Shown one piece after another: positions 5,980 through 24,000 of a DNA stretch of 24,000 nt. A program made the translations under genes and the position numbers. Location: assembly GCA_016649615.1 (NCBI GenBank), contig JAENXK010000015.1:3704-27703 (forward strand). Reading direction: 5' to 3'. The notes below the pieces were generated by a model. That model was given only the letters and a program-made list of their open reading frames with translations, ran no database searches and was not told where the DNA came from. The stretch's first letter is position 1. Each line of letters opens with the position of its first letter. Source of the DNA: Thermoleophilia bacterium. Lineage in GTDB: Bacteria > Actinomycetota > Thermoleophilia > Solirubrobacterales > 70-9.

Positions 5980-6020
5980 TCAGTGCTCCTTTGATTTGCG
6001 GGTCGGCCTGACGGAATAGC

Positions 6021-6914: not shown

Positions 6915-6970
6915 CGAAAACTCCTTGATCGAATCCGGACACGCGACCGGCCTGGGACATCTCCGAGAGA

Positions 6971-6999
6971 TTTATACAGGATTACTTCGGCTCACCTAA
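6971..6999 (-). promoter_or_regulatory. Candidate promoter (TG-TATAAA) with an overlapping DtxR/IdeR-like iron box upstream of the FTR1 operon
   Basis: The minus strand reads TTAGGTGAGCCGAAGTAAT-CC-TG-TATAAA. The 19-mer (6981-6999) matches the DtxR consensus TTAGGTTAGCCTAACCTAA at 13/19 by hand count (left half 9/10, right half weak). It lies in the only AT-richer patch of the 180-nt spacer. Confidence 0.3.
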
Positions 7000-7094
7000 T
7001 ACTGGCGACGCAACGGCGACTGCCTCAAACGGCGGCCGGCTGCTTCTCCCGGGCCGGATATTCGATCAGATCGGCGGGGCCGACCCTGCCGGTG

Positions 7095-8300: not shown

Positions 8301-8303
8301 CGG

Positions 8304-9544: not shown

Positions 9545-9554
9545 CTGACCCATG

Positions 9555-10781
9555 CTAACCATGCCCGATCAGTTCCACCTCGACCGTCTCGCCGGCCTCG
9601 ATGGTTCCCTCCCCCGGAGGCACCAGGACGAGGCCATCGGCTCCGAGCATCGAGGTCAGGATGTGGGAGCCCTGGGCGCCGGTCGGCTCGGCCGTCCAGC
9701 CCCCTTCGCCCGGCTCGATCCGGCACCGGACCGCTTCGGTCCGACCGGGCGTCTGGGCGCGGTCCGCCGCCAGGCGCGCCCGGATTCTCCGGCGGTCGGG
9801 CAGACCGCCACCGAGGGCGGTCAGCGCCGGACGTGCCAGCAGCAGAAAGGTGACCATCGCAGAGACCGGATTGCCCGGAAGCCCGAATGCCAGAGTCTCC
9901 CCGCGCCGGCCGAACCAGGTCGGCTTGCCGGGCTTCAGGGCGATCCGCCAGAACCGCTGCTCGAAACCGAGGTCGATCAGCGCTCCCTTGACGTGATCGT
10001 GTTCACCGACCGAAACCCCACCGCAGACCACGACGAGATCGGCCGCGACCGCCGCCCCGATCGCTTCCCGGGTCGCGGCCGGTTCGTCCCGGACGATCTC
10101 GTTGAGGACGACCTCTGCCCCGGACTCCCGGACCAGTCCGGATATCGAGAACGAATTGGAGTTGCGCACCGCCCCGGGCCGCATCGGATCACCCGGACCG
10201 ATCAGCTCGTCACCGCTACTCAGGACCGCGACCCGGGGACGGCGATAGCAGGACACGCTTCCAGCGCCGACCGAGGCCAACACCCCCTGTTCCGCCGGGC
10301 CGATCACTGTTCCGGAAGAGATCACCTCCGAACCGGGCGCGACATCCTCGCCGGGCCGCCTGATGTGCAGTCCGGGCGGCGGGTCGACCCCGATCCCGAC
10401 CCGGCCTTTTTCCCGAACGGCGTCTTCGAGCGGTACCACCGAATCGGCCCCTTCCGGAATGACCGCCCCGGTCGAAATCGTCATCGCCTGCCCGGGGTCC
10501 AGACCGGCCTCGGATGGATGGCCGGCCCGGGACTCGCCGGCCAGTTCAAGCCAGACCGGTCTCTCCCCGCGAGCGCCGGTAGTGTCGGCGGAGCGGACCG
10601 CGAAGCCGTCCATCGCCGAGTTGTCGAAGGCCGGAACCGGATCGGTGCTCCTCACCGGGCCCGCAACCCTTCTCCCGAGGGAGCGGGCGAGCTCAACGGC
10701 CTCCGATTCGAGTGGAGTGATCGGGTCGAGTACCGCGGCGCGTGCCGCTTCGAGTTCGATCAGCGCTTGGGGGGCCACCAT
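9555..10781 (-). CDS. moeA: Molybdopterin molybdenumtransferase MoeA
   Basis: MoeA blocks are present: NSAMDGFAVR, VCGGVSVGEHD, LPGNPVSAMVTF. I chose the ATG at 10781 (GAAGGTG just upstream). The 20 codons of the longer ORF (to 10841) have only about 50% GC3, which looks non-coding in this genome. Confidence 0.9.
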   Translation of the reverse strand: MVAPQALIELEAARAAVLDPITPLESEAVELARSLGRRVAGPVRSTDPVPAFDNSAMDGFAVRSADTTGARGERPVWLELAGESRAGHPSEAGLDPGQAMTISTGAVIPEGADSVVPLEDAVREKGRVGIGVDPPPGLHIRRPGEDVAPGSEVISSGTVIGPAEQGVLASVGAGSVSCYRRPRVAVLSSGDELIGPGDPMRPGAVRNSNSFSISGLVRESGAEVVLNEIVRDEPAATREAIGAAVAADLVVVCGGVSVGEHDHVKGALIDLGFEQRFWRIALKPGKPTWFGRRGETLAFGLPGNPVSAMVTFLLLARPALTALGGGLPDRRRIRARLAADRAQTPGRTEAVRCRIEPGEGGWTAEPTGAQGSHILTSMLGADGLVLVPPGEGTIEAGETVEVELIGHG

Positions 10782-10827
10782 TTCACCTTCGCCGGGAGGA
10801 TAGAGAGAAGGTGCCAGACTGGCCCCG

Positions 10828-11442
10828 GTGAGAGCCCGCAAGAACCGGAACGAGCAGCGTGCCCGCGAAGCGATCGTCGCCGTCCTGGCCGGAGGACGGG
10901 CCAGTCGGCTGGGTGGCGCAAAGGCGACGGCCGAGCTGGCCGGCCGGCCGCTGATCGAGTATCCGCTGAGCGCGGCGGATCAGGCCGGGCTCGCCACGAT
11001 CGTGGTCGCCAAGGCCGACTCCCCGCTCCCCCCGATCGATCGCGAAATCGTGATCGAGCCCGATCTTCCCCGTCACCCACTAGCCGGAGTTGTCGCCGCC
11101 CTCGAAGTCGGCAGGGACCGCCCCGTCCTGGTGCTCGGATGCGACTTGCCGCTGATCGGCCCGGAACTGCTCCGGTGGCTCGCCGGCCAGTCCGGACCGG
11201 TGGTCGTACCGCTGGCCGAAGGCCACCTTCAGCCGCTTGCCGCCCTCTATCGCCCCGAGATCCTGCCGGCCCTCCGGGCCGGGCTCGAAGCCGCGGTTTC
11301 GCTGAAGGACCTGGTCGTTTCGCTCGATCCGCGGATCGTCGGCGAAGAGGAGCTGGCGCCCTTCGGCGACCCGGCCGAGATGTTCGCCAACGTCAATACG
11401 CCGGAAGACCTCCGGCGGGTGACCGCCCTGCTCGGCGGGTGA
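10828..11442 (+). CDS. mobA: Molybdenum cofactor guanylyltransferase MobA
   Basis: IVAVLAGGRASRLGGAKA nucleotide-binding loop and a later LGCDLPLI block. GTG start. It is divergent from moeA with only a ~46-nt spacer. This is the only + strand gene between 7095 and the window end. Confidence 0.8.
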   Translation: MRARKNRNEQRAREAIVAVLAGGRASRLGGAKATAELAGRPLIEYPLSAADQAGLATIVVAKADSPLPPIDREIVIEPDLPRHPLAGVVAALEVGRDRPVLVLGCDLPLIGPELLRWLAGQSGPVVVPLAEGHLQPLAALYRPEILPALRAGLEAAVSLKDLVVSLDPRIVGEEELAPFGDPAEMFANVNTPEDLRRVTALLGG

Positions 11443-11455
11443 CCGCCGGTCGGGT

Positions 11456-11662
11456 CTACTCGACGCCCCTGGCAACCGGGATCCACTCCGCCACGGGCAG
11501 GTCGGTCTGCCCGGCCATCCAGCAGGCGACCGGTGCCGCCGTCCTCTCGGAGGCGTGAGCGGCGACTCCGGCCAGCTCGAGGATCGCCTCGACCTGCTCC
11601 GGGGTCGGGGGCTGCACGCCGGTCAGCTCGGAAAATTTCTCGATCCACTCGTCACGGGTCAC
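11456..11662 (-). CDS. Small conserved hypothetical protein, DUF6457-like
   Basis: 68 aa with a GTG start, preceded by AAGGAGG at 5-nt spacing (+ strand cctcctt at 11668-11674). Very high GC3. The sequence (DEWIEKFSELTGV...VEAILELAGVAAHASERTAAPVACWMAG) matches my recollection of the small actinobacterial family usually found beside mobA. This is recollection, not a verified hit. Confidence 0.6.
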   Translation of the reverse strand: MTRDEWIEKFSELTGVQPPTPEQVEAILELAGVAAHASERTAAPVACWMAGQTDLPVAEWIPVARGVE

Positions 11663-11704
11663 AAATGCCTCCTTGGTTCGTCGGCGGATAACGGGACGTT
11701 CTGA

Positions 11705-12838
11705 TCATGACTGCTCAGAGTTGTGAGGGCCACGGGCGATCAACCTGGTCGCCGTCGCTTTCCAGGCGGCGGTCAAATCCATTCCGGGGCAGATTCCCAT
11801 GGCTTCAGCCGACCGCGCCGTGATTTCGGCAGTCACCGGCTGCGGAATCACCAGGCCGACCCTGGCCCGGTTGCCGATCGGCGTGACTGATCTCACTTTC
11901 CCGGCGAGCCGGTTGAGGGCCGAATCCCGAGGCGTCTCCCCCGGCATCTCGAGCGAAATCTCCCACGGAAAGACACTGACCGCGACCCTGCCGCTCGCCC
12001 GGTCGACGCTTCGAAGCGTCCCCCCTCCATCGGCCGCGACAACGGTCAGGCCGCGTTCGGTTCCGGTGACCTCCCCTTCGATCACCGCCGCGCCGGTGAG
12101 GTCGGCCACGAAACGGGATTCGGGGCGGGCCGAGATGTCGGCCGGGCTCCCGGTCTGAACGATCTCGCCCCGGTCGAGCACGGCGATCCGGTCACCGAGC
12201 ACCGCCGCCTCGTCGAAGGAGTGGGTCACGATCACCGCCGGCCCGCCCGACTCCGACAGCGCCAGATCGAGCTGCTGCATCGAGTTCGCCCGGGTGGCCG
12301 GATCCAGGGCCGAGAGCGGTTCGTCAAACAACAGAATTCGAGGATCGGATGCCAGGGTCCGGGCCAGCGCCACGCGCTGCCGCTCCCCACCAGAAAGTGT
12401 CTCCGGAATCTCCCCGGCGAGTCCGTCCGCCCCGAACCTGGCGAGCAGTTCCACCGCGCGGCGGCGTCGGGCCGCTCGCGGCCGGGATCGCATTCCGTAA
12501 GCGACGTTTCGCCAGGATTTCATTCCCGGGAACAACGCGTAGTCCTGGAACAGGTAGCCGCAGCGCCGCCGCTCCGGAACCAGGTCGACTCCCTTCTCGG
12601 AATCGAAAAGCGGGTCCGGACCGAGCGTGATCCGCCCGCGGTCCGGGCGCCGCAGCCCGGCTATCAGTCTGAGCAGGGTCGTTTTGCCGGCACCGGACGG
12701 TCCGACGATCGCGAGCCGCTCGCCGGGCTCGACCCGGAACCCGGCGTCGAACGAGAAATCGCGCAGCCGGGACAGCACCGAAACCTCGAGCCGCCCGTCT
12801 GATTTCCGGTCGGAACCGGCCGGGGAGACGGTGCTCAC
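11705..12838 (-). CDS. modC: Molybdate ABC transporter ATP-binding protein ModC with C-terminal TOBE-like domain
   Basis: Walker A GPSGAGKTT, LSGGERQRVALAR, Walker B LLFDEPLSALD, plus a C-terminal beta-rich TOBE-like tail. 4-nt overlap with modB. Confidence 0.85.
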   Translation of the reverse strand: MSTVSPAGSDRKSDGRLEVSVLSRLRDFSFDAGFRVEPGERLAIVGPSGAGKTTLLRLIAGLRRPDRGRITLGPDPLFDSEKGVDLVPERRRCGYLFQDYALFPGMKSWRNVAYGMRSRPRAARRRRAVELLARFGADGLAGEIPETLSGGERQRVALARTLASDPRILLFDEPLSALDPATRANSMQQLDLALSESGGPAVIVTHSFDEAAVLGDRIAVLDRGEIVQTGSPADISARPESRFVADLTGAAVIEGEVTGTERGLTVVAADGGGTLRSVDRASGRVAVSVFPWEISLEMPGETPRDSALNRLAGKVRSVTPIGNRARVGLVIPQPVTAEITARSAEAMGICPGMDLTAAWKATATRLIARGPHNSEQS

Positions 12839-13644
12839 GAGCCCGCCCGATCGAGCCCGCGGTCGGCGCCGAAAAGCTTCACCGAGAGCAGGATCAGCGC
12901 CGCGACGGCGATAAGCACAGCCGAGATCGCCAGCGCGGCGGTGAAACCATCCGGGTCGGAGAACCGCGAGAAGATTGCCAGCGGTGCGGTCTGAGTCACT
13001 CCCTGGAGCGACCCGGCAAACATCAGGGTCGCTCCGAACTCGCCCAGAGCCCGGCCCCAGGCCAGGGCCAGGCCGGATGAAAGTCCGGGGCGCGCCCCGG
13101 GTACCGCCACCGAGACGAAAGTCCGAAACGGCCCGGCCCCGAGAGTGCGTGACGCCTCGAGCCGGCCGCGGTCGAGAGAGGCGAAAGCGGCGACCGCCTG
13201 ACGGAGGTAAAAGGGCGCAGCGACGAAGATGAGAGCGACGATCACGCCGGCGGTCTGCAGCACCAACTCGATCCCGGCATCACTGATCCAGACTCCGAAT
13301 ATCCCCTGCGGTCCGAAGGCGGCAAGAAGGGCGATGCCGGCGACTGCCGGGGGCATGACCAGAGGAAGCTCAATCAGGGTGAGGGCGAAAGAACGGCCGG
13401 GGAAATCCCTCCTGGCCAGGAAGTAGGCCGCCGGGGTGCCGACCACGATGATCACCAGCACCGCCACCACGGTGGTCCGGAGGCTGAGCCAGAGTGCGTC
13501 GAGTACAACCGGCTCACCCAGGGCGGCGATCAGCTGGGCCGGAGTAGTGTCGGCGAAGATCGCGACGGTCGGCAGGGTCAGGAAGAGCAGTGTCACGGCA
13601 AGCGCCAGGAAGGCGATCCGCCCGAACCAGGAGCCGAGGCTCAC
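12835..13644 (-). CDS. modB: Molybdate ABC transporter permease ModB
   Basis: Binding-protein-dependent permease with the EAA loop LEASRTLGAGPFRTFVSVAVPGARPG. Overlaps modA and modC by 4 nt each. Confidence 0.9.
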   Translation of the reverse strand: MSLGSWFGRIAFLALAVTLLFLTLPTVAIFADTTPAQLIAALGEPVVLDALWLSLRTTVVAVLVIIVVGTPAAYFLARRDFPGRSFALTLIELPLVMPPAVAGIALLAAFGPQGIFGVWISDAGIELVLQTAGVIVALIFVAAPFYLRQAVAAFASLDRGRLEASRTLGAGPFRTFVSVAVPGARPGLSSGLALAWGRALGEFGATLMFAGSLQGVTQTAPLAIFSRFSDPDGFTAALAISAVLIAVAALILLSVKLFGADRGLDRAGS

Positions 13645-14441
13645 CCGCCCGGCGGCAGAAACCCGGCCTGCCCCAGCCGCACCGCTCCCTCACCCCCTGT
13701 GAGGCCGTTCAGGTACCGGCGGGCGAGGTCCGGCTCGGGGGCCCCTCTGACCACCGCGCCCGCGTAGGCGATGCGAGGCTGAATTTTTCCCGGGATCGGG
13801 ATCGCCTCGAGGAGGCCCCCGACAGCGCGCACATCGGTCCGGTAGACGATCCCGGCGTCGGCGGCCCCCCGGACCAGTTTGGCGGTGATCGAACCAGCCT
13901 CCGGTTCGCGTGAAGCGGTGTTGGCGAGGATCTTTTCCCGCTCTTCCGGCGCGAGTTCGGCCAGCAGCCTGTCGGAATAGATGCCGACCGGGACGCTGGA
14001 GTCGCCGAGAATCACCGAGCGGTCCGGAGCGGTCAGATCGGCGAGGCCGTCGATCCCGCTACCGGCCGGTGCCGCGATCACGAGTCGGTTGGAGGCGAAA
14101 ACCCGCGGCCGCTCGAGCAGCCCTTCCCGGTGGAGCCGCCTCGGAAGCGCAGTATCGGCCGCGACATAAACGTCCGGTCTGGCTCCCTGCCGGATCTGGA
14201 CCGCCAGCAGGTCGGATCCGGCGAACGACTGGCGGACCTGCGTCGGCGGCAGCGTCCCGGCATAGTCGGCCAGCGCGGTCTGGAGCGAAGAGGCGGCCAG
14301 AACCGTGAGTCGCGGCCGGTCGTCCCCACCACCGGTCCCGCAGGCAGCGATCCCCATGCCGCCCAGGCCGACCAGCAGGGAGGCGAACAGAACCCGGATG
14401 ACCGGACCCGGGGATCTGTGAACCTTCCTGCGCCTAGTCAC
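13641..14441 (-). CDS. modA: Molybdate-binding lipoprotein ModA
   Basis: Signal peptide with lipobox IAAC-G. ModA-like blocks: LTVLAASSLQTAL, QSFAGSDLLAVQIRQGARPDVYVAAD. Confidence 0.85.
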   Translation of the reverse strand: MTRRRKVHRSPGPVIRVLFASLLVGLGGMGIAACGTGGGDDRPRLTVLAASSLQTALADYAGTLPPTQVRQSFAGSDLLAVQIRQGARPDVYVAADTALPRRLHREGLLERPRVFASNRLVIAAPAGSGIDGLADLTAPDRSVILGDSSVPVGIYSDRLLAELAPEEREKILANTASREPEAGSITAKLVRGAADAGIVYRTDVRAVGGLLEAIPIPGKIQPRIAYAGAVVRGAPEPDLARRYLNGLTGGEGAVRLGQAGFLPPGG

Positions 14442-14829
14442 CCGAATCGCCGCGGTCGATCATGACCGAGGTTGCCTTGACCATGGCGGTGGCCTTCACG
14501 CCCGGAGCCAGACCGAGTTCCTCTACCGAGTCCCGGGTGACCGCGGCGGTGATCAGATGCGGTCCCGCCTCGATCTCGACCAGGGCCATCACCCCGTCGG
14601 CCTCGACCGAGCGAACGACGCCCGCAAACCGGTTGCGGGCTGAAAATGTGTCACCGGTTTCGTGCCGGCCGGGGCTGCCCCGCAGGCGTTCGACCTCACT
14701 CACCGGGACCCGTCTCCGGTTTCGCTCATCGCGACCCGTCCTGATCTTGCCGGCCCGGTCCCAGCGCCGGACCGTGTCGGTGCTGACCCCCAGTTGCCGG
14801 GCGGCCTCGCCAATACTCAAATCGGTCAT
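14434..14829 (-). CDS. Molybdate-responsive regulator candidate: MerR/excisionase-type HTH fused to a TOBE (Mop) molybdate-binding domain
   Basis: The N-terminus LSIGEAARQLGVSTDTVRRWDRAGKI is an HTH_17-like motif. The C-terminus SARNRFAGVVRSVEADGVMALVEIEAG...ITAAVTRDSVEELGLAPGVKATAMVKATSVMI is a single TOBE/Mop fold pattern. It overlaps modA by 8 nt. Confidence 0.8.
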   Translation of the reverse strand: MTDLSIGEAARQLGVSTDTVRRWDRAGKIRTGRDERNRRRVPVSEVERLRGSPGRHETGDTFSARNRFAGVVRSVEADGVMALVEIEAGPHLITAAVTRDSVEELGLAPGVKATAMVKATSVMIDRGDSGD

Positions 14830-14850
14830 TGCCTAGGCACTATATAGGCA
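14830..14850. promoter_or_regulatory. Perfect palindromic operator candidate abutting the regulator start codon, with an embedded -10-like TATAGT
   Basis: TGCCTA-GGCACTATA-TAGGCA has 6-bp perfect arms and a 9-bp spacer. It contains the 8-bp palindrome CTATATAG (14840-14847) and CCTAGG. On the minus strand, TATAGT (14839-14844) lies 9 nt upstream of the ATG at 14829. That is consistent with a leaderless or near-leaderless transcript. Confidence 0.4.
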
Positions 14851-14855
14851 GAGCT

Positions 14856-14972
14856 ACCCAAGCGCGAGAGTCCGGCAGCGGCACGATCTCGATGAACCGG
14901 ACCTGATACCCGGCAGAGCGGGCGAAGTCGCAGAACCGCCCGACCTCCTCCGGCCGGACGTTCACCGGGACA
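14856..14972 (-). pseudogene. Relic fragment of a second moaA gene (internal ~39 codons only)
   Basis: Hand alignment: 14877-14951 versus 16249-16323 (inside the intact moaA) gives about 66/75 identical bases. The minus-strand translation ...VNVRPEEVGRFCDFARSAGYQVRFIEIVPLPDSRAWV... parallels MoaA ...VNAVAIRDFTEDEVGRFCEFARSTRYQVRFIEFMPLDGDRSWV..., with a 6-codon gap. There is no start, no radical-SAM Cys motif and no C-terminal domain. Confidence 0.6.
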
Positions 14973-14976: not shown

Positions 14977-15741
14977 CTAGCGCCCGCGCTCCATCAGATA
15001 CCGCTTGGCCACGGCTCGTGACTCCTCGTCAGCCAGCGCGGCCATCGTGATTTCCGCGTCGCGAAAGCTCTGGCGGGTCGAGTAGGCCTCCTCGACCGAA
15101 GCGTCGACCAGCTGCTTGGTCTGCCTGATCAGGAACCCCGGCTTCTCCGCCAATCTGGCGGCCAGGGCCTCCACCTCGGACTCGAGATCGTCGTCAGCCA
15201 CGACCTGGTTGAGGAAGCCGAGCGATAGTGCCTCGGCCGCCGTGAAGGGACGGCAAGTCAGGACGAGTTCCTTGGTCATCGCCGGTCCGAGCTCTCGCAC
15301 CAGCCGCGGGATCCCGCCCCAGGCGAGCGGGATACCCAGATCGACCTCGGGGATCGAGAACCGGGTCGAGGCGGCTGCCAGCCGCAGGTCGCAGGCTGCC
15401 GCGAGGACAAGCGCGCCACCGACACAGTGACCGTGGATCCTGGCGATGGTGAGCGCCGGGATCGCGCCCACCGCTTCGGCCATCTGTCTGCCGAGGTCGA
15501 TCGTCGACGATGAAGGATCCGCGGTCCCGGCCGCATCAAGGTCGAATCCGGCAGAGAATGCCCGGCCCTCCCCGCCGACGATCACTACTTTCAGGTCCGG
15601 GGTCTCGGCAAGCACGCCGGCGGCCGCGGTCAACTCCCGGAGCGCTGTCGGACTGAGCGCATTGAGGCGCTCGGGCCGGGTCAGAGTGATCCGGGCGAGG
15701 GGCGACGTGGCTTCCAGTTTGAGGGCAGTGAATTCGGTCAT
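14977..15741 (-). CDS. Enoyl-CoA hydratase/isomerase (crotonase superfamily) protein
   Basis: ARITLTRPERLNAL, VVIVGGEGRAFSAGFDL and HGHCVGGALVLAAACDLRLA are classic crotonase blocks. I prefer the ATG at 15741 (MTEFTALKLE...). The ORF track's 15801 start is an alternative. Confidence 0.8.
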   Translation of the reverse strand: MTEFTALKLEATSPLARITLTRPERLNALSPTALRELTAAAGVLAETPDLKVVIVGGEGRAFSAGFDLDAAGTADPSSSTIDLGRQMAEAVGAIPALTIARIHGHCVGGALVLAAACDLRLAAASTRFSIPEVDLGIPLAWGGIPRLVRELGPAMTKELVLTCRPFTAAEALSLGFLNQVVADDDLESEVEALAARLAEKPGFLIRQTKQLVDASVEEAYSTRQSFRDAEITMAALADEESRAVAKRYLMERGR

Positions 15742-15842
15742 CCGGAGGGTCTCAAGCGTACCGTCACACGATCGCCCCATCGCGGACAATCCGTCATCCA
15801 TCTGTTCTTCCCCGTATCGGCGGACACGGTGATGCTCCGGTC

Positions 15843-16838
15843 TCAGCCGCCGATCGCGCTCATCGTGCGGGGCGGCTGCTGGAAGCCGGGTTCGTTGACC
15901 CGGTGCTTCAGCTCTTTTCGCCAGACAGCTTCCCGGATGATCCCGTCGATCTCGGCGTCATCGGCCCCGCTCCTCAGCGGCTCCCGCAGATCGGTCTCGC
16001 TCATCGAGAACAGGCAGGTTCGCAGCTTGCCTTCGGCGGTCAGCCGGATCCGGTTGCAGTCGGAGCAGAACGGTTCGGAGACCGGGTTGATGAAGCCGAT
16101 CTCTCCTCTCCCGTCGGTGAACCGGAAGACCCTGGCGGTGGCCGAGGGCTCGCGCGGGAGTTCCTCGATCGGGTGGATCGCGGCAACCATCTTCCGCAGC
16201 TGTTCACCGGCCAGCACAGATTCCGGAACCCACGAGCGGTCCCCGTCGAGCGGCATGAACTCGATGAACCGGACCTGGTACCGCGTCGAGCGGGCGAACT
16301 CGCAGAACCGCCCGACCTCGTCCTCGGTGAAGTCCCGAATCGCAACCGCGTTGACCTTTATCGGGTCGACTTCAGGGTGGGCGGCGAGCGCCTCCAGTCC
16401 GTCGAGAACCCGGGGCAGGGCATCGCGCCGGGTCATCTGGAAGAAGCGGTCACGCTGGAGTGAGTCGATCGAAACGTTGACCCGCTGGATTCCGGCCGAA
16501 ACCAGCGCCGCGGCATCACGCCCGAGCAGGTAGCCGTTGGTGGTCAGCGACAGATCACTGATTCCCTCGACGGCCGCCAGCATCCCGAGCAGGTCCGGAA
16601 ACTGCTTCCTGACCAGCGGCTCGCCTCCTGTCAGGCGGAGGTCTTCGATCCCCATCCCGGCGAAGATCGATACCAGTCGCGTGATCTCCTCGAAGGTGAG
16701 GATCTCCTCCCGATCCAGCCAGTCCAGGCCTTCCGCGGGCATGCAGTACTGGCAGCGGAAGTTGCAGCGATCAGTGACCGAGACCCGCAGGTCGCTGATG
16801 CGCCTTCCGTGGCCGTCGTGGAGTTGTCGGTCAGCCAC
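15843..16838 (-). CDS. moaA: GTP 3',8-cyclase MoaA (radical SAM)
   Basis: LRVSVTDRCNFRCQYCMP (CxxxCxxC), a GGEPL block, and the C-terminal auxiliary-cluster motif CSDCNRIRLTAEGKLRTCLF. The GTG start shares one base with the sulfatase stop (TAGTG). Confidence 0.95.
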   Translation of the reverse strand: MADRQLHDGHGRRISDLRVSVTDRCNFRCQYCMPAEGLDWLDREEILTFEEITRLVSIFAGMGIEDLRLTGGEPLVRKQFPDLLGMLAAVEGISDLSLTTNGYLLGRDAAALVSAGIQRVNVSIDSLQRDRFFQMTRRDALPRVLDGLEALAAHPEVDPIKVNAVAIRDFTEDEVGRFCEFARSTRYQVRFIEFMPLDGDRSWVPESVLAGEQLRKMVAAIHPIEELPREPSATARVFRFTDGRGEIGFINPVSEPFCSDCNRIRLTAEGKLRTCLFSMSETDLREPLRSGADDAEIDGIIREAVWRKELKHRVNEPGFQQPPRTMSAIGG

Positions 16839-18502
16839 TACCTTGCGCCAGCTTCTTCCAGAGCCGTCCGCGTCCGCTCCAGGAGGTCCTGGTACCCGGA
16901 ATCGATGACCTCTCCCGAATCCCGGTCAACCAGGTTGCGGATCTGATCCGGATCCGCCTTCATGTCGTACAACTCGTACTCCGGGTCCTTCCCGCCGGAC
17001 TCGTCCAGGTACACCGCGTACATCGCCTCCGGCGACCTCACCGCCCGGATCTGGTTCGGCCGGGCGACCACGTCCCTGTAGGCGGTGCCGGACTGGTGGT
17101 CGTCAAACGTGAAGTAGGAGAATTCCTGGACCGACCGGGCCGGCTCCGGGTGTTCACTCACCGCCGACCAGGCGAGCCCTGACGAGGCCAGCCGGTTCCG
17201 GTCGGGCTTCGATTCAGCGGCCAGCACCGGCGTCAGATCCCGGCCCCTCACCCCGTCGCCCGATGTGTCGACCCCAGCGATCGATGCGAGGGTCGGCAGG
17301 ATGTCGCAGAGCGAAGCCGGAGCCTCACTGGCCGCCGGCTCGGAGAACAGGATCGGGTTCGAGATCACCAGTGGCACGTTGATCGTCTCGTCGTAGGCGT
17401 TGAACATCTTCTGTCTGAGCCCGCCGTGCGACATGCCCATCTCGCCATGGTCGGAAGTCCTGACAATCACCGTCTTCGAGCGGAGCGACTCATCGTCTTC
17501 CGGGTCACCTAGCGCGGCCAGGATCCGGCCGACCTTTTCGTCGACGAGGCGCTGCAGGTGGGCGTAGAAGCGGCAGTAGTCGAGCTTCTCCTCGTCGCCG
17601 TTCAACCCCCCGAGAAAGGCGGCCTGGCCGAGCTTAATCGTCGCCTGCACCCGTGGCTTGGAGGCAAGGTTTTCGCCAGCTGACTCCGGCAGATCGATCT
17701 CGCCCAGATCCGCCCATTCGGAGCGGTCGTAGCCGCCCTGTTCAAAAGTGGACGGGTACCCGAGTACGTCATGCGGGTTGACCAGTGAGAAAATCAGGGC
17801 CCAGGGCTCGGGCGGGGGATCGGCCAGGAAGCGCTCGGCCTGGCGGGTGAAGTCCTCGTCAAAGCCCTGCCTGCTTCTTCCGGCCCCGCTGCCGCCCCCG
17901 AAATGAGATGCCTCAATGTTCTCGCCGGCATCGGGAGGCTCCCAGTCGTGCAGCCCGTAGCTGTCGGCCAGGTGATCGGTGTCACCCGGGCCCCAGTCGC
18001 CGTCCACCGGCTGACTGAGATGCCATTTGCCTTTCAGCACCGTGCGGTATCCGGCCCGTTTCAGGACCGTGGCGATGTTGGGCGTGGCCGGATCGAGGTC
18101 GCGTTCCTCGTCGCCGCCGTCCGGGCGGCGTACCGCGCCTTTTGCCACCGTGCCGAAAGCGTCGGCCGCCGACAGTTCCCCGTTTCTCACCGCGGCGAAC
18201 GCGCCCCGGACGCTCCAGTGGGCATGCCGCGGGTTTGCCTTCGCACCCCCCTGGGTCAGGGTCAATTTGACGCCGTGCTCGTCCGGCCAGCGACCGGTCA
18301 GAAGCGACGCCCGGCTCGGCGAGCACATACAGCTTGCGGCGCAGGTCTCGGTGAAGGTGACCCCGGTCCGGCTGATCTCGGCATCGGCCGGAGTCAGCTT
18401 CTCGAGCCACTCGGGATCGTCCGGCCAGTGCTGCGGCCGGCGCTGCTGGTCGGTGATGATCAGGAGAAGGTTCGGTGGAACTTCGCCGCCGCCATTGCTC
18501 AC
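16838..18502 (-). CDS. Cys-type sulfatase family protein (formylglycine-dependent), apparently cytoplasmic
   Basis: LLLIITDQQR and the sulfatase signature CMCSPSRASLLTGRWP (C-x-P-x-R). Downstream blocks: KGKWHL, TSDHGEMG. I see no signal-peptide-like hydrophobic N-terminus. Confidence 0.85.
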   Translation of the reverse strand: MSNGGGEVPPNLLLIITDQQRRPQHWPDDPEWLEKLTPADAEISRTGVTFTETCAASCMCSPSRASLLTGRWPDEHGVKLTLTQGGAKANPRHAHWSVRGAFAAVRNGELSAADAFGTVAKGAVRRPDGGDEERDLDPATPNIATVLKRAGYRTVLKGKWHLSQPVDGDWGPGDTDHLADSYGLHDWEPPDAGENIEASHFGGGSGAGRSRQGFDEDFTRQAERFLADPPPEPWALIFSLVNPHDVLGYPSTFEQGGYDRSEWADLGEIDLPESAGENLASKPRVQATIKLGQAAFLGGLNGDEEKLDYCRFYAHLQRLVDEKVGRILAALGDPEDDESLRSKTVIVRTSDHGEMGMSHGGLRQKMFNAYDETINVPLVISNPILFSEPAASEAPASLCDILPTLASIAGVDTSGDGVRGRDLTPVLAAESKPDRNRLASSGLAWSAVSEHPEPARSVQEFSYFTFDDHQSGTAYRDVVARPNQIRAVRSPEAMYAVYLDESGGKDPEYELYDMKADPDQIRNLVDRDSGEVIDSGYQDLLERTRTALEEAGAR

Positions 18503-19704
18503 GGTCGACCGTCCGCCTCGCCGCGGTCGACTGCCGCGATCACTGCGCGTCCGACCTCGATAGCCCGGCCCAGGGACCGGTCACTGATCCGGTCGGCCGT
18601 ATCGGTCGGAGCGTGGTAGTCGGGGATGCTCTCCGCCTGAACGCCCAGGGTGGCCGCGCGCCCGCCACGCACCAGGACCGGGGTCGAGTCATAGGGCAGG
18701 CCCGAACCGAGCGCAATCGGACTTAGTCCGAGATCGGGTCGCTCTCGTTCGATTCTCCTCATCACTTCCAGTATCCCGGAATCGGCCGGCCAGCTCTGCA
18801 TAGCGTTGCCTTCGCGCTCGAGGTAACGGAGCGGGGCGTCTCCGCCGACCCCGTCGAAGTTCAGAAACAGCCAGCCGGAGGTCTTGGTCGTGCGCAGGAA
18901 CGATCGCATCCCGAGCACGCCCGACTCCTCGCTGCCGGTGACCAGCAGAACCAGACGGGTCCCCTTCAGCGGTTCCACGGCGACCTCCGAAGCCAGTACG
19001 CCGGAGACCGCCGCGCCGGAAGCGTTGTCGTTGGCGCCGGGCACGTCTTCCCCGCGAATTTCCCTTTCGAGCATCAGGGCGGCTCCCAGCCCGCAGAGCA
19101 GGCGGGCCGCCCCGACCAGACCCCGGCCTGCCCGGTGTCGGCCGAGAACCGGGTCGAGCGCCTGAATGCCCAGTGCCGCCCCGACCAGGCCGGAGAGCCT
19201 GCCGAGATAAGGAGTCACCGAGGGGTGAAACATCAGCCCGCTACGCGAACTGTCGAGATGGGACACAAGACAGAGCGTCCGCACGACCTCTCCCTTCGGC
19301 TCGATCGTGGCCACCAGGTTGCGGCTCTCCCCGTGACAGGTCAGGCGGGATTCGCCAATTCGGCCGAAGCGGCCCTCGTCGAATCCGGCCGCCAGCGCGG
19401 CCAGCGAAAGCCCGGTGCCGAGGCGCGGGGAGAGCCGCCCGACCAGGCCGGCTGACGCAGCGGCGGCCAGAACCGGTCCGTAAAGCGAACCGAACGAAGC
19501 GCGGGACCTGAACCCGGTCAGATCCACCCCTGCCAGCCCGGATTCGAGCAGCCGTTCCCGCAGCGCCTCGGCTCCTTCCCGCTCGGCGTCCGAGCAGGGA
19601 CGCCGGGGGCCGACCCCGGAGGCCAGCATCGTCGTCCACTCGCGGGCCCTGGCCACGGCGCCGGGTCCCGAAGCGGGACCGGGCCCGCGAGAAGCCGGCT
19701 TCAC
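18499..19704 (-). CDS. M28-family metallopeptidase (aminopeptidase-like)
   Basis: The M28 metal-ligand blocks occur in order: SHLDSS, GANDNASGAAV, GSEESG, DYHAPTD. GTGA overlaps at both ends. Confidence 0.75.
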   Translation of the reverse strand: MKPASRGPGPASGPGAVARAREWTTMLASGVGPRRPCSDAEREGAEALRERLLESGLAGVDLTGFRSRASFGSLYGPVLAAAASAGLVGRLSPRLGTGLSLAALAAGFDEGRFGRIGESRLTCHGESRNLVATIEPKGEVVRTLCLVSHLDSSRSGLMFHPSVTPYLGRLSGLVGAALGIQALDPVLGRHRAGRGLVGAARLLCGLGAALMLEREIRGEDVPGANDNASGAAVSGVLASEVAVEPLKGTRLVLLVTGSEESGVLGMRSFLRTTKTSGWLFLNFDGVGGDAPLRYLEREGNAMQSWPADSGILEVMRRIERERPDLGLSPIALGSGLPYDSTPVLVRGGRAATLGVQAESIPDYHAPTDTADRISDRSLGRAIEVGRAVIAAVDRGEADGRP

Positions 19705-19964
19705 GGCTCCTTGTTCATTCTCGAGACGACCCGCTCGGCAACATCCGGCGGAGGCGGCTCCCGCAGGCCGCCGAGCCCCGAGACTGTACGCCGCAGCGCC
19801 GCCAGCAGCTTGCGGCAGCTCGAGCAGTCATGCAGGTGCCGGCGAGCCCGCTCCGTCTCTTCGGGAGGCAGTTCACCGTCAAGGTGCTCGGATAGATGCG
19901 CCCTGGTCCAGCGGTGCTCGCGCATGAACCAGGGCATCGTGACCATCTTCTTCAGAGGATTCAC
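19701..19964 (-). CDS. Small soluble zinc-binding anti-sigma factor (ZAS, zf-HC2 type)
   Basis: H-x3-C-x2-C motif (HLHDCSSC) preceded by SEHLDGELPPEE. 87 aa with no hydrophobic segment. GTGA overlap with the sigma gene. Internal ATGs at codons 7, 10 and 14 are possible alternative starts. Confidence 0.7.
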   Translation of the reverse strand: MNPLKKMVTMPWFMREHRWTRAHLSEHLDGELPPEETERARRHLHDCSSCRKLLAALRRTVSGLGGLREPPPPDVAERVVSRMNKEP

Positions 19965-20620
19965 TCCTCCCCCTTTCCGGTCAGGCCGGCGATCGACTTT
20001 CGGACCCGCAACCGGGCCCGGTGAAGGCGGCTCTTGAAGGCCGGCTCACCGAGTTCCATCACGGCCGCCGCTTCGGCGGTGCTCAAACCTTCTATGTCAC
20101 GCAGGACAAGAGGCAACCTGAGATCGGGTGGCAGGTCGAGGACGGCCTGTTTCAGGGCGCGCCGGAGCTCGGCCTGCTCGGCCTTGACTCCGGGGGCCTG
20201 CGAGCTGTCGGAGATTTCGAAGCCCGAATCGGCGTTAATCGAACGGGCGGTCCGCTCGCGATGACGGCCGACCTGTTCGGCCCTGCGGCGGGACTCGTTG
20301 ACCCCGATCCGGTAAAGCCATGTGAAGAATTTCGCATCGCCCTTGAAGCGATCGATCGACCGCCAGGCCCGGATAAAGGCCTCCTGAACAACCTCCTCAG
20401 TTTCTTCACCGCGCCCGAGCAGACGCGCGACCACGCTGTAGAGGCTGTCGGCATGGCGTCGAACCAGTGCCTCGAAGGCCGCTTCGTCGCCCGCCTGGGC
20501 CCTTTTGACCAGCCCCGCGTCCGGATCTTCCTTCACCGGCCGGAGGCTAACAGCAGCCCGGCCCGCGCCCGGCATAGCGAGGGATTCAAATCCCGGAACC
20601 GGCAATGCCAACCCGGTCAT
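19961..20620 (-). CDS. ECF-type RNA polymerase sigma-70 family factor
   Basis: Region 2 (AFEALVRRHADSLYSVVARLLG...EEVVQEAFIRAWRSIDRF) and region 4 (LPPDLRLPLVLRDIEGLSTAEAAAVMELGEPAFKSRLHRARLRVR). The ATG forms an ATGA overlap with the upstream gene's stop. Confidence 0.85.
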   Translation of the reverse strand: MTGLALPVPGFESLAMPGAGRAAVSLRPVKEDPDAGLVKRAQAGDEAAFEALVRRHADSLYSVVARLLGRGEETEEVVQEAFIRAWRSIDRFKGDAKFFTWLYRIGVNESRRRAEQVGRHRERTARSINADSGFEISDSSQAPGVKAEQAELRRALKQAVLDLPPDLRLPLVLRDIEGLSTAEAAAVMELGEPAFKSRLHRARLRVRKSIAGLTGKGEE

Positions 20621-21261
20621 GGCCGCCCTCCGGCCGGTTGCTCCGGCCCCGCCACCCGGGCATCGGATTCCGTCGGATCCCGGACCTCCGGTCGCCCGCC
20701 ACCAACTGTCTGCGGCCGGCCGCGCAGGCGGCGTTCAACCAGCGGTACCACGACAACGAGCGCGGCGACCGCCGCGATCGAGACGAAGAAGCCGGGCGAG
20801 CCGGGGTTGCCGAGCGAGCTGCCGAGCGCCACGAAAGCGATCGTGCCGGGCACGATGCCGATCACCGTCGCGCTCGTGTAGTCGCGAGGGTGTACCCCGG
20901 AAACGCCGAACGCGTAGTTGGTCAGGTTGAACGGGGCGACCGGGACCAGCCTGACCACCAGCACGGCGAGGAATCCGGATCCCGTAAGCCGTTCGTCGAA
21001 ACGGGCCAATCGCTTCCCCAGTCGCCGCTTGACCCGCTCCCGCCCGGCCCGGCGGGCAATCGCAAAGGCGGCGATCGCCCCCAGGGATGCCCCGGCCAGA
21101 ACCAGGATCGTTCCCCAGAACGGACCGAAAAGAGCTCCCCCGGCAATCGTGGCGACCGAGCCCGGCACCAGACCGACCGTCAGCAGGGCATAAGCCATGA
21201 CAAAGGCGATCGGCCCGAGCACACCTGCGGCCAACACGATCTCTTCGAGCTCGGCGGTCAC
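20617..21261 (-). CDS. TVP38/TMEM64 (DedA superfamily, SNARE-associated PF09335-like) membrane protein
   Basis: LVPGSVATIAGGALFGPFWGTILVLAGASLGAIAAFAIARRAGR and RLVPVAPFNLTNYAFGVSGV are typical of the family. I chose the GTG at 21261 (GTGA overlap with the upstream stop). The 362-aa ORF-track version runs through the neighbouring gene in another frame and is Arg/Pro-rich. Confidence 0.75.
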   Translation of the reverse strand: MTAELEEIVLAAGVLGPIAFVMAYALLTVGLVPGSVATIAGGALFGPFWGTILVLAGASLGAIAAFAIARRAGRERVKRRLGKRLARFDERLTGSGFLAVLVVRLVPVAPFNLTNYAFGVSGVHPRDYTSATVIGIVPGTIAFVALGSSLGNPGSPGFFVSIAAVAALVVVVPLVERRLRGRPQTVGGGRPEVRDPTESDARVAGPEQPAGGRP

Positions 21262-21857
21262 CGGAGCTCCCTGACCGCGAGGGCAACCCGCTGGACCACG
21301 GTTACCGCAACCATCGCGCCGAAAACCCAGGCGATCACGGCCGCCCGCGCCGGCCAGAAGCAGAATGCGGAGTAGGCGACAATTGTCTCGGTGCCTTCGG
21401 TCAATCCACCGGTGAAGCGCAGAGAGCGTTCGTCGCCGTGGTCGAGTCCCCGTTTCTCGACCAGGGCACTGAAGGAGAGCAGGGCGACATTGTTGAGCAG
21501 GTAGACAGCGAGCAGAAAGACGCAGGCGACCCGGGCATCCGGGACGGCTATCGCCACCCCGCAGACGAATCCGCCGTAGACCACGAAGTCGGCAAGGAAG
21601 TCCATGAAGCCGCCTAGATCCGAAGCCGTCTCCTGTCGGCGGGCCAGGACTCCGTCGAGCCCGTCGAGAGCCCGGTTTCCCAGCAACGCTGCGAGCGCGA
21701 TCCACCAGGCCCCGAAGGCCGCCGCCACACAGGCACCGAGACCGACCACCAGGCCGAGCGCGGTCACCATGGCGGGCGAAACCCCGGCCCGGTCAGCCGA
21801 ACGGGCGGCCACGTCGAACGCCGGCGCCAGCCTGGGTCTCAGGGCTGCGTCAAGCAC
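21258..21857 (-). CDS. CDP-alcohol phosphatidyltransferase family protein
   Basis: The signature D-G-x2-A-R-x8-G-x3-D-x3-D is present as DGLDGVLARRQETASDLGGFMDFLADF. 199 aa with multiple TM helices. The GTG start overlaps the radical SAM gene's stop by 8 nt. Confidence 0.85.
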   Translation of the reverse strand: MLDAALRPRLAPAFDVAARSADRAGVSPAMVTALGLVVGLGACVAAAFGAWWIALAALLGNRALDGLDGVLARRQETASDLGGFMDFLADFVVYGGFVCGVAIAVPDARVACVFLLAVYLLNNVALLSFSALVEKRGLDHGDERSLRFTGGLTEGTETIVAYSAFCFWPARAAVIAWVFGAMVAVTVVQRVALAVRELR

Positions 21858-23328
21858 GCGTCACCTTGCCGGCCGGATCGCGAGTCCCGGACCCTTCCGT
21901 GGCTACCGGGCGATCGCCGGCCTCGGCATCGCTCCCCGATTCGTGAAGCGGAAGCAGCCGGGCCAGGGCCAGGTTCTCGGCCGGGTCGAGCACCGCGTGC
22001 TGGACGCAGGCCGGAACCATCCGGTCATCTTCGGGGTGAGACATCCCGTAGGCGCAACCCTGCAGTCTTTCCTGAGCAGCCCGTATCTCGGGCTCATCGC
22101 TGATCTCGCCGCGTTCGAGTCCGTCCCAGGCCGGTTTCACGACCGAGGCATCCATGAAGTTGTGCATGACCACGGTCACCGCCGTCGGACGGCGGTGAAT
22201 GATCCGGACCGGCCCGCCCATGCGGCCGGCCAGCCGGAAGGCGAAAGGAACCGCCGCGAACAGCGCGCGAGGCTCCCGGGCGAGGGCACGCAGGAGCCGG
22301 GTGAACAGGAGCGGCTTCGATGAGGCGAAATCCATCCCTCCTGCCGCGGCCATGAACAAGTCTCGCATACGGATGTCACGCGGGTCATCCTGATCGAAAA
22401 GTGTCCAGTAGCGGTCCCCGGAAAACCCGCCGTGGGCGGTGCGGTTGCAGCGGGGGTCCCCCCACTGCATGGCCCGGTAGTGGAGACGGGCGCCCACGCC
22501 CCGCTCGATCCGCTCCCAGATCTCGTCGTCGGTCTGGACCCTGAACCTGTCCTTCCACCGACTCGGATTGCCGACGTGCGCGGCCGGCTGGAAGCTGAAC
22601 ATGCGAAAACCCATGCCCCGGCAGTCGCGGATCAGCGCCGGGATCTGCTCGACGTTGCGGGGCGTGACCGTCATGTTGTGGGCCAGGTAGCTGGTAACAC
22701 CGTGCTCGCGTTCGAGCCGGGCGAACAACTCGCAGAACCGGCGTCGGTAAGGATTCAGCTCGGCCTCTGACCGGGCCCGCTTGATGCCTCGCCGCCCATG
22801 CATGGTCGTGTCGAAGTGCCCGGCGAAACTGAGGTGGGAAAACCGGGGCCGCCCGGTCTCCGGGTCAAGCGCCAGGGTTTCCAGATACTCGTAGTCGAAG
22901 TCGCCGTGGGTCATCGACATCGGCTTGCGGTCGTGTTCGATCATCTGCCGGAGCGCTCCGGCATGCGCCTCGGGGCCGAGCAGCGTGACCTCACCGCCGA
23001 TCAGCTGGGCGTGAACCCCCGGGCCCCGGATCTCGCGGGCATTCTTCATCTGCGAGCCGATCTCCCGGGCGGTGTGATCACCGTCGGTCCGAACGCGGTT
23101 CGAATCGCGTGAGTGATAGCAGGGGGTACAGGCGAGGTCGCAGCGCGGAAATACCCCGTGAGTGCCCTCGCAGCCGGTCGACCGCCGGCCGAGCATCTGA
23201 CTCGGGCCACGAATCGCCTCGGGCAGTTGTGCCCACCGCCGCTCTAGGGCGGCCTCCAGCTCCGGAGGCTCGGGCCGGGTCTTCTGCTCGAGCGCGCGCA
23301 GCCTCCTGATCGCATCGGCGACCCTCAT
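21850..23328 (-). CDS. Radical SAM enzyme of unassigned subfamily
   Basis: 492 aa. CDLACTPC (CxxxCxxC, residues 63-70, nt 23119-23142) is preceded by GCEGTHGVFPR, then a GGEVTLL SAM-binding-like block. AGGAG lies ~8 nt upstream of the ATG. I see no B12-binding motif and no SPASM/twitch Cys cluster, only scattered Cys in the C-terminal half (e.g. QGCAYG...VPACVQH). Confidence 0.8.
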   Translation of the reverse strand: MRVADAIRRLRALEQKTRPEPPELEAALERRWAQLPEAIRGPSQMLGRRSTGCEGTHGVFPRCDLACTPCYHSRDSNRVRTDGDHTAREIGSQMKNAREIRGPGVHAQLIGGEVTLLGPEAHAGALRQMIEHDRKPMSMTHGDFDYEYLETLALDPETGRPRFSHLSFAGHFDTTMHGRRGIKRARSEAELNPYRRRFCELFARLEREHGVTSYLAHNMTVTPRNVEQIPALIRDCRGMGFRMFSFQPAAHVGNPSRWKDRFRVQTDDEIWERIERGVGARLHYRAMQWGDPRCNRTAHGGFSGDRYWTLFDQDDPRDIRMRDLFMAAAGGMDFASSKPLLFTRLLRALAREPRALFAAVPFAFRLAGRMGGPVRIIHRRPTAVTVVMHNFMDASVVKPAWDGLERGEISDEPEIRAAQERLQGCAYGMSHPEDDRMVPACVQHAVLDPAENLALARLLPLHESGSDAEAGDRPVATEGSGTRDPAGKVTRA

Positions 23329-23374
23329 CTACCCACTCCTGCCGCGTTCATCCGGCTGCCCCGGCCGCTCTCAT

Positions 23375-23429
23375 GCTGATTTCGACCCGACGGGCCGCAA
23401 CTCGGTTCTTCGGCCGGCGCCAAATCAGC
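23375..23429. promoter_or_regulatory. 8-bp perfect inverted repeat bracketing the leader/terminator region upstream of the radical SAM gene
   Basis: GCTGATTT (23375-23382) and AAATCAGC (23422-23429) are exact reverse complements 39 nt apart. The right arm overlaps the stop codon of the upstream ABC permease. An inner GGCCG...CGGCC pair is also present. Confidence 0.25.
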
Positions 23430-24000
23430 CTGTCCTTCCGGCGCGAACCGCCAGACCGAGGGCCAGCAATGCCGGAGCCAGGAAGAGCAGCGAGAGCGAA
23501 GCGGCCACCTGGGGATCACTGCCGACGTACGGCAGCAGGACGACCGGCAGCGTGGGGCGGCCGGCGGCGATCGCGAGCGAACTCCCGTATTGCGCCCAGG
23601 AGACGAGGAAGGCCAGCAGGGCGGCCGCGGCCAGGGTCGGCCTCACGTTCGGCAGAGTGACATGAAGCAGGCGCTCGACCGGCCCCACGCCGAGCGAGCG
23701 ACTCATCTCCTCGAGCCCGCGAAGCCGGGGTCCGAATCCGGCGGAGAGAACAAGGATCGCGTACGGCAGGACGAAGACCAGGTGGACCAGGACCAGGCCG
23801 GCCAGCGAATCGATCAGCCCCAGTCGGACGAACCACTCGGTCAGGCCGACTCCGGTGGCGAGGGGCGGCACCAGCAGCGGTGCGGCCAGGATGAGAATGA
23901 CCGGAGCCGGGTGGCGCAGGCGACGCTCGCCGAGGACCCGGGCCGCCGGCCAGGCGGTCACCAGCGCCAGCAGCGTAGTCAGAAGTGCTACCTCGATCGA
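23425..24000 (-). CDS. ABC transporter permease (binding-protein-dependent inner-membrane component), 5'-truncated by the window edge
   Basis: EAA-loop pattern LEEMSRSLGVGPVERLLHVTLPNVRP. The frame stays open upstream of the listed GTG to base 24000 (SIEVALLTTLLALV...), so the gene continues beyond the window. Confidence 0.8.
   Translation of the reverse strand, partial: SIEVALLTTLLALVTAWPAARVLGERRLRHPAPVILILAAPLLVPPLATGVGLTEWFVRLGLIDSLAGLVLVHLVFVLPYAILVLSAGFGPRLRGLEEMSRSLGVGPVERLLHVTLPNVRPTLAAAALLAFLVSWAQYGSSLAIAAGRPTLPVVLLPYVGSDPQVAASLSLLFLAPALLALGLAVRAGRTG

Follow-up and report, generated by a model that had tools for sequence, protein, structure and literature searches.

The window described here, a stretch of 24,000 nucleotides (nt) from contig JAENXK010000015.1 of the Thermoleophilia bacterium assembly GCA_016649615.1, carries on its minus strand a run of eight genes whose reading frames overlap at every junction. 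The host is a soil member of the Solirubrobacterales (Thermoleophilia) with a genome of ~68% GC, and the window itself is ~65–70% GC. In the direction of transcription, the run comprises genes for a radical S-adenosylmethionine protein (rSAM; 21850–23328, 492 aa), a CDP-alcohol phosphatidyltransferase (CDP-OH; 21258–21857, 199 aa), a DedA/VTT membrane protein (20617–21261, 214 aa), a sigma factor of the extracytoplasmic function (ECF) type (19961–20620, 219 aa), a zinc-binding anti-sigma factor (ZAS) of the zf-HC2 type (19701–19964, 87 aa), an M28-family metallopeptidase (18499–19704, 401 aa), a Cys-type sulfatase (16838–18502, 554 aa), and moaA, encoding GTP 3′,8-cyclase (15843–16838, 331 aa). 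All of these identities were checked against Pfam and NCBIfam and confirmed. The initial annotation, made from the sequence of the window alone, had listed seven overlapping junctions, and the open reading frame (ORF) coordinates match its positions exactly. From rSAM to moaA, the overlaps are −8, −4, −4, −4, −4, −4, and −1 nt: CDP-OH starts 8 nt inside rSAM, the DedA start forms a GTGA with the stop of CDP-OH and the sigma start an ATGA with the stop of DedA, the anti-sigma, M28, and sulfatase genes each begin at a GTGA, and the TAG of the sulfatase shares base 16838 with the GTG of moaA. The 96-nt non-coding spacer upstream of the chain (23329–23424) is likewise real. We propose, as the likely origin of this eight-gene chain, that three independently evolving modules were fused recently, at roughly the level of the genus, by loss of the spacers between them, and that the result is a compact accreted array.

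For comparison, we collected homologous loci from related genomes, which are designated below by L numbers and include 80 Thermoleophilia/Solirubrobacterales loci found with rSAM as the query (57–72% identity). At the amino acid level, identity to the window is 86–95% in L098/L099, 74–90% in L100, and 45–74% in L001/L002. The overlaps would be an artefact if choosing the most upstream start in this GC-rich DNA had hidden true starts downstream, behind real gaps. This DNA is rich in spuriously long ORFs (that of DedA, for one, stays open for 148 extra codons), and Prodigal-type calls on the near-identical L097 locus start M28 at an internal ATG, giving a 376-aa protein (8064–9194) behind a 72-nt gap, and start moaA at codon 33 (299 aa; 10951–11850). 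However, the latter call deletes the CxxxCxxC cluster motif from MoaA, and the NCBI annotation of the identical protein is the full 331 aa; the internal M28 ATG (19629 in the window) would cut a conserved N-terminal segment, and the N-terminal alignment (A2) speaks for 19704 as the start. The starts of the sulfatase and of moaA are forced, as the next in-frame start falls within the catalytic domain and, for moaA, downstream of the CxxxCxxC motif. The other five overlapping starts occupy the same position in the orthologous L098, L100, L001, and L002 loci, with the codon itself varying among ATG, GTG, and TTG (the anti-sigma start, for instance, is ATG in L100), and such turnover at a fixed overlap position is the pattern that would be expected from selection on a real start. 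The 8-nt overlap between CDP-OH and rSAM is conserved in L098, L002, and L001, the 4-nt overlap of DedA with CDP-OH in four relatives, and the ATGA/GTGA overlap at the sigma start in relatives as well; moreover, at most of these junctions the upstream gene carries, in its 3′ end, a sequence with Shine–Dalgarno (SD)-like pairing ahead of the next start. We consider an artefact of start choice extremely improbable. Reassignment of starts, which the initial annotation had named as a possible refutation, is not borne out, and the locus illustrates how a gene caller can misplace starts at overlapping GTG joints, to the point of removing an iron–sulfur motif.

The chain is real and long, yet it is no anomaly, and the overlap of stop and start codons is the usual form of abutment in this group. 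We sampled 1.5 Mb of related Solirubrobacterales DNA with the same most-upstream start rule and a home-made gene caller based on codon bias. Overlaps are present at 37% of its 791 co-directional junctions (exactly 4 nt in 23%), and runs reach six consecutive overlaps, a length that is an underestimate, since the caller misses genes the size of the 87-aa anti-sigma gene and thereby breaks runs. A run of seven has a probability of 0.37^7, or ~1e-3 per junction, and with a few thousand junctions per genome, one or more such runs are therefore expected in each genome, even under independence; clustering of overlaps in operons is not yet counted in this estimate. In most prokaryote groups, ~15% of gene pairs are co-directional and overlapping, with 4 nt as the commonest length (PMC6728339). 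Our junctions resemble the overlapping, coupled pairs of that 2019 study in being co-directional, in their −4 and −1 nt overlaps (plus −8 here), and in the SD-like sequence in the upstream 3′ end, but differ in having GTG as the main start codon and in forming a long run of seven, for which coupling is a prediction. A further study (PMC10666635) states that overlapping pairs often encode subunits of a complex, and that generalization does not fit the unrelated enzymes of this chain.

Synteny divides the chain into three parts. Module A ([rSAM]–CDP-OH–DedA–ECF sigma–ZAS anti-sigma) reads as a membrane/lipid module with its own regulator; module B is the M28 peptidase–sulfatase pair; and module C is moaA, the head of a cluster for molybdate uptake and molybdenum cofactor (Moco) synthesis. 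The full chain is restricted to the species of the window and one close relative. It is present as a whole in the window and in L097 (99–100% identity); in the relative (M28 86% identical), L098 carries the whole block without the enoyl-CoA hydratase gene (ech) that follows moaA in the window, and L099, cut at its 5′ end, carries the block from DedA on. In L100 (M28 78%), rSAM, the dispensable member of module A, is absent and a 63-nt gap precedes moaA. The sigma module is missing altogether from L107 (M28 79%), where the order is Pyr_redox_2–M28–sulfatase–moaA, and L108 (M28 77%) has a free-standing M28–sulfatase pair behind a 176-nt spacer, followed by a major facilitator superfamily (MFS) gene and then moaA. 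In L109 (moaA 80%), moaA follows narGHJI–narK. Conversely, L001 and L002 (rSAM 70–72%) have an ATP-binding cassette (ABC) permease gene followed by rSAM–CDP-OH–DedA–sigma–anti-sigma with the same overlaps, after which L002 continues with a gene on the opposite strand and the L001 contig ends ~300 nt on. Because the modules separate in L001/L002, L107, L108, and L109, we conclude that the three travel independently.

The initial annotation had regarded the chain as a single unit linking these functions, and had suggested synteny as a check. Of that claim, the overlaps stand, being both real and maintained in evolution, and coupling across them is plausible; the linked unit does not, as it is contradicted by L001/L002, L107, L108, L109, and L100, and the sub-blocks that travel together are modules A, B, and C. 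Within module B, the M28/sulfatase overlap is 4 nt without exception in L098, L100, L107, and L108. More distant homologues of M28 (~55% identity) stand alone, beside dnaE2/imuB, and those of the sulfatase (59–68%) are flanked by a Na+/H+ exchanger and a functionally uncharacterized secreted protein; a metagenome scan with the sulfatase gave 16 loci, in which neither M28 nor moaA adjoined it, a result that is informative as a negative only. Of all junctions in the chain, that between the sulfatase and moaA varies most, at −1, 0, or +63 nt, or with the MFS gene intervening in L108. The sigma/anti-sigma pair, on the other hand, sits stably behind CDP-OH and DedA in five genomes, and in L066 and L073, DedA or CDP-OH recurs close to homologues of sigma in a different order, in support of a putative functional link within module A.

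The initial annotation had also described moaA as detached from the other moa genes, which is wrong: moeA, moaD/E, moaC, moaB, mobA, and modABC lie 1–8 kb downstream within the window. The protein ranks as a full equivalog of MoaA (TIGR02666, 368.6 bits; cut-off 284), in whose sequence we read the N-terminal CNFRCQYC, the C-terminal CSDCNx..C, and the ...AIGG tail. We considered the possibility that it is a sulfatase-maturing rSAM enzyme, and rejected it in view of the equivalog match, the Mob_synth_C domain, the GG tail, and the position of the gene at the head of the Moco cluster. This ~9-kb molybdenum cluster is on the moaA strand except for mobA. Behind ech (14977–15801; Pfam ECH_1), it comprises a regulator gene with helix-turn-helix (HTH) and Mop domains (mop; 14434–14829), modA (13641–14441), and modB (12835–13644), all three assigned by Pfam/NCBIfam, and modC (11705–12838), which is below the NCBIfam cut-off and carries a TOBE domain; TIGR00638, TIGR01256, and TIGR02141 are above cut-off in the mop–modABC region. 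There follow, by Pfam, DUF6457 (11456–11662), a mobA-like gene (10828–11442, plus strand), moeA (9555–10841), a moaD/E fusion (8801–9562), moaC (8304–8915, as the longest ORF), and a moaB/mog-like gene (7818–8300). We found moaA at the head of the cluster in all seven of the moaA-bearing relatives examined (L097–L100, L107–L109), with the same order of Moco cluster genes in L097, L107, L108, and L109. The window is thus like other actinobacterial Moco/molybdate clusters in that moaA leads and the order is that of L107, L108, and L109, but differs in that ech and a relic of moaA are inserted after moaA and that the sulfatase stop abuts the moaA start. An Rfam search of the window, L098, and L100 returned no Moco riboswitch and no other family.

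Overlap is not confined to the eight genes. The mop/modA (−8), modA/modB (−4), modB/modC (−4), moeA/moaDE (−8), and moaDE/moaC (−4) junctions are chained in the same way, and across the co-directional array (>16 kb, roughly 20 kb) about 13 of the 20 same-strand junctions overlap. The eight-gene stretch is therefore the longest run of overlaps within a larger array that overlaps on both sides of it. Immediately before the mop start lie two abutting perfect palindromes, CTATATAG and TGCCTAGGCA (14830–14847, minus strand), which include a TATAGT 9 nt upstream of the mop ATG. They are invariant in the window, L100 (13968–13988), L107 (11004–11024), and L108 (11037–11057), while the flanks diverge, and no SD pairing was found ahead of the mop start. 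The pair is probably the promoter/operator of mop–modABC, giving a leaderless mRNA, and its TATAT core is reminiscent of ModE operators. In L098 (11246–11731), the call for mop is an 86-aa protein with TOBE alone, preceded by a gap of 225 nt, and the operator-like element is still there; the HTH half of this gene may be disrupted.

Several traces of recent rearrangement remain at the locus. L100 and L107 are collinear on both flanks of a cassette that is present in L100 alone (L107 5536–8213, L100 2396–11182). This cassette consists of eight genes (for a substrate-binding protein (SBP), an ABC ATPase, two permeases, CDP-OH, DedA, sigma, and anti-sigma) and lies between Pyr_redox_2 and M28. In L107, without the cassette, the Pyr_redox_2 frame ends at the TGA of the ATGA of M28, so that a new 4-nt overlap is formed. 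The permease whose 3′ part precedes rSAM in the window (23425–23961, minus strand, cut by the ORF listing; Pfam BPD_transp_1) is the last gene of the same SBP–ATPase–permease–permease set, which precedes module A in L097, L098, L100, L001, and L002. Directly ahead of moaA, L100 (12844–12906) and L107 (~9930–9940) share the element CTGACTAT(T/G)GTGACGGTyGATG, a candidate leaderless moaA promoter; it is missing from the window and L098, where the sulfatase stop abuts moaA. On the other side of moaA, ech is a lineage-specific insertion found only in the species of the window and absent from L098, L100, L107, L108, and L109. The spacer between ech and mop holds a relic, ~100 nt long, of a second moaA copy (14855–14951, minus strand; aa ~173–204 by tblastn), with 88% identity over 75 nt (14877–14951) to nt 516–590 of the resident moaA by blastn and 69% over 32 aa (14855–14950) by tblastn. 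The relic would be the mark of an earlier rearrangement that came with the gain of ech. Together, L100, L107, L108, the window, and the moaA relic document how operon-like arrays grow, with spacers being lost and ATGA/GTGA joints re-formed.

The regulator in module A has the features of an ECF pair. The sigma factor consists of regions 2 and 4 only (Sigma70_r2, r4_2, and Sigma70_ECF in Pfam; TIGR02937, 95.7 bits; cut-off 42.9) and matches no named NCBIfam equivalog above cut-off. The anti-sigma factor scores 40 bits with zf-HC2 (cut-off 22.2), has the HxxxCxxC motif as HLHDCSSC, and at 87 aa, with no transmembrane segment, is of the soluble ZAS type; it does not reach the threshold of the RsrA family (TIGR03988, 26.8 bits against 62.5). 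Within the 96-nt spacer ahead of rSAM, we identified a candidate ECF-type promoter, GAACC-N15-GGGTC (23384–23408, minus strand), which reads GAAC-N18-GTC. Both boxes are conserved, with diverging sequence between them, in L098, L100 (where they stand ahead of CDP-OH), L001, and L002. In these last two loci, 9 nt lie between the end of the motif and the rSAM ATG, a spacing that points to a possible leaderless rSAM mRNA there. In L078, L068, L071, and L037, homologues of sigma (40–53% identity) have a GAATC variant of the motif directly upstream. In addition, the motif occurs ahead of a Pyr_redox_2 gene of the disulfide-reductase type and just after the anti-sigma gene in L001 (4684, 13602) and L002 (2456, 14329 (−)), and these extra copies hint at a possible small regulon of thiol/redox flavour. 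We found no conserved ECF-type motif inside the block, in the L108 spacer ahead of M28, or in the L100 and L107 spacers ahead of moaA. As a possible internal promoter of moaA, we examined a GAAC-N17-GTC at 17057, within the sulfatase gene, and set it aside, as it is off spacing and not conserved in L098 or L100.

The thiol-stress systems SigR–RsrA and SigH–RshA of Actinobacteria use the promoter GGAAT-N18-GTT, and we take the layout GAAC-N18-GTC to resemble promoters of this SigR/SigH type. The likeness to these systems extends to the small soluble ZAS anti-sigma factor adjoining its sigma and to the Pyr_redox_2 gene with the motif upstream (L001, L002); in contrast, the first zinc ligand of the anti-sigma factor in the window is apparently His rather than a redox-active Cys, and the RsrA model stays below cut-off. 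The simplest reading is that the sigma factor would autoregulate from a promoter ahead of its target genes, and autoregulation from the 5′ promoter could account for the position of the pair, which the initial annotation had called buried in the middle of an operon. That position, behind CDP-OH and DedA, is borne out and uncommon, but it has a precedent in ylaABCD of Bacillus subtilis, where the sigma factor YlaC is encoded by the third gene and the RsrA-like anti-sigma factor YlaD by the fourth (PMC4105308). In both cases an ECF sigma gene and its RsrA-like, HxxxCxxC-type anti-sigma gene stand behind other genes of the operon instead of leading it; in the window, however, the upstream genes are rSAM, CDP-OH, and DedA, the anti-sigma factor is short and apparently soluble, and more genes follow the pair. 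A tie between a DedA/VTT membrane protein and an ECF envelope-stress sigma factor also has a parallel, since B. subtilis sigma-M has been shown experimentally to control the DedA-family transporter UptA/YngC (bioRxiv 10.1101/2022.02.03.479048). In B. subtilis, a regulon promoter at a locus of its own provides the link, whereas here it would consist in physical linkage within the array.

The remaining members of module A justify the label "lipid module" that the initial annotation had given to rSAM, CDP-OH, and DedA. The rSAM protein has its CxxxCxxC at C63/C67/C70 and four further invariant cysteines (C53, C294, C425, and C441), and its match to Pfam Radical_SAM is weak. Its family numbers at least 2527 proteins, mainly from Thermoleophilia, whose only names are "radical SAM domain protein" or "hypothetical". 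Searches with phmmer and profiles found no sequence relatives in the PDB, NCBIfam gave no assignment, and the Tes model NF045702 had no match at E ≤ 0.01. The AlphaFold2 model (pLDDT 75, pTM 0.79) has as its best Foldseek match in the PDB GDGT-MAS (7TOL), with E 3e-10 over 471 columns, TM 0.48, and 12% identity; the next match is at 6e-4. A profile search against GDGT-MAS gave E 0.34, and by sequence the protein falls outside Tes, for which the published criterion is BLAST E<1e-50 (PMC8941075). The best whole-length fold match of the predicted rSAM structure is GDGT-MAS/Tes (7TOL; PMC8941075), and both occur in a lipid-gene context; rSAM differs in the low identity and TM score, the unmatched Tes model, and the presence of only four further invariant cysteines. 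The usual context of the rSAM family (L004 3697–9608 and ~50 other loci) is a Metallophos_2+Radical_SAM fusion (546 aa), a glycosyltransferase of family GT2 (225 aa), and rSAM, with a flavin/NAD oxidoreductase (409 aa) and a CDP-alcohol phosphatidyltransferase (271 aa) in divergent orientation. This looks like an undescribed biosynthetic cluster for a lipid or head group, and our search of the literature for rSAM with a CDP-alcohol transferase in Thermoleophilia returned nothing relevant.

The CDP-OH protein of module A matches PF01066 with 46.3 bits (cut-off 22) and has the motif DGxxARx8Gx3Dx3D as DGVLARRQETASDLGGFMDFLAD; the nearest named families are the archaetidylinositol-P, PIP, and DIPP synthases, with all specific equivalogs below cut-off. 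DedA matches the Pfam VTT_dom with 98.6 bits. It is a doubtful idea that module A serves stress-inducible remodelling of membrane lipids, with the ECF sigma factor switching on a distant GDGT-MAS/Tes-like rSAM enzyme, an inositol-phosphate-type CDP-alcohol transferase, and a flippase-like DedA protein. If this were true, the rSAM family would make an undescribed C–C-modified or membrane-spanning lipid in widespread aerobic soil Thermoleophilia. In module B, the peptidase is assigned by PF04389, and the sulfatase is of type I (PF00884, 114 bits) with the C/S-x-P-x-R motif as CSPSR; no named NCBIfam equivalog reaches cut-off for the latter, and we saw no signal peptide in it.

How, then, is the chain expressed, and why are these genes together? 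The view that goes with the initial annotation is of a single integrated stress operon with coupled translation, whose ECF sigma factor would control lipid remodelling jointly with a peptidase, a sulfatase, and the first Moco-synthesis step. The chain is uninterrupted, the terminator signal within it is not above chance (eight terminator-like sites found, 7.6 expected), the single ECF-type motif stands at the 5′ end with none conserved inside, and the whole order is kept in the window/L097 and L098/L099 and, minus rSAM, in L100. The same comparison set turns against this view at a similar evolutionary distance, where the modules come apart (L107, L108, L001/L002, L109), and the ECF motif is missing from the spacers ahead of M28 in L108 and ahead of moaA in L100 and L107. 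Together with the variable sulfatase/moaA junction, in which an MFS gene lies in L108, and the membership of moaA in the adjoining molybdenum cluster, this makes an integrated stress operon rather improbable. We give somewhat more weight to the view, although we still think it unlikely, that the block contains several transcription units, with promoters inside coding 3′ ends (for example, those of the anti-sigma and sulfatase genes) driving M28–sulfatase and moaA, and with overlaps that reflect translation only, or compaction. In relatives, modules B and C do have upstream regions of their own (in L108, a spacer of 176 nt ahead of M28–sulfatase; in L100 and L107, a conserved element with TATnGT ahead of moaA), and mop–modABC retains its own conserved promoter-like element. 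A sigma-70-type promoter scan of the block found no site, but actinobacterial promoters are weakly defined, so that an empty scan excludes little. Nevertheless, the moaA element of L100 and L107 is missing from the window, a promoter-like site inside the block was not found, and we identified no conserved non-coding signal in the coding 3′ ends.

A recent accretion of three modules remains, in our judgement, the likely explanation. Under such a scheme, sigma released from its soluble zinc anti-sigma factor would transcribe module A from the GAACC-N15-GGGTC promoter, and the sigma gene would thereby be autoregulated from in front of its own targets. Ribosomes would reinitiate at the −4 and −8 junctions, and M28, the sulfatase, and moaA would be carried along by read-through. 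Spacer loss would have removed the upstream regions of the latter three genes, as the absence of the moaA element from the window suggests, and new ATGA/GTGA joints could arise easily, as an upstream frame that has lost its stop would, in GC-rich DNA, run to the TGA at the start of the next gene. Several points weigh against this explanation. Promoter activity, a single transcript with read-through, and translational coupling are all plausible deductions from sequence. The adjacency of modules B and C is kept in five genus-level genomes, and a functional link could explain it in place of inheritance; the window, L098, and L100 are close relatives, hence their agreement is not independent conservation. 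The background rate of overlap depends on a home-made gene caller. Finally, the enrichment of the ECF motif (one match to GAAYC-N15-GGGTC in the whole window against 0.25 expected by chance) is partly circular, because the definition was widened (C/T, N15–16) after the sites had been seen. If accretion is correct, the functional mixture of the chain would reflect a recent change of gene order and not a new regulatory design, in a phylum (Actinomycetota) whose GC-rich members carry chains of 4-nt overlaps routinely. What appears worth following is the conserved ECF sigma module around an uncharacterized rSAM, a CDP-alcohol transferase, and DedA, with a promoter motif that can be tested.

Beyond the Moco cluster, the same strand carries genes for a cupredoxin-like protein, an FTR1 iron permease, and an ArsR-type HTH regulator (5566–7742, minus strand). 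The remaining genes of the window encode a GDSL lipase, an ABC-2 exporter pair, and a carboxyltransferase.

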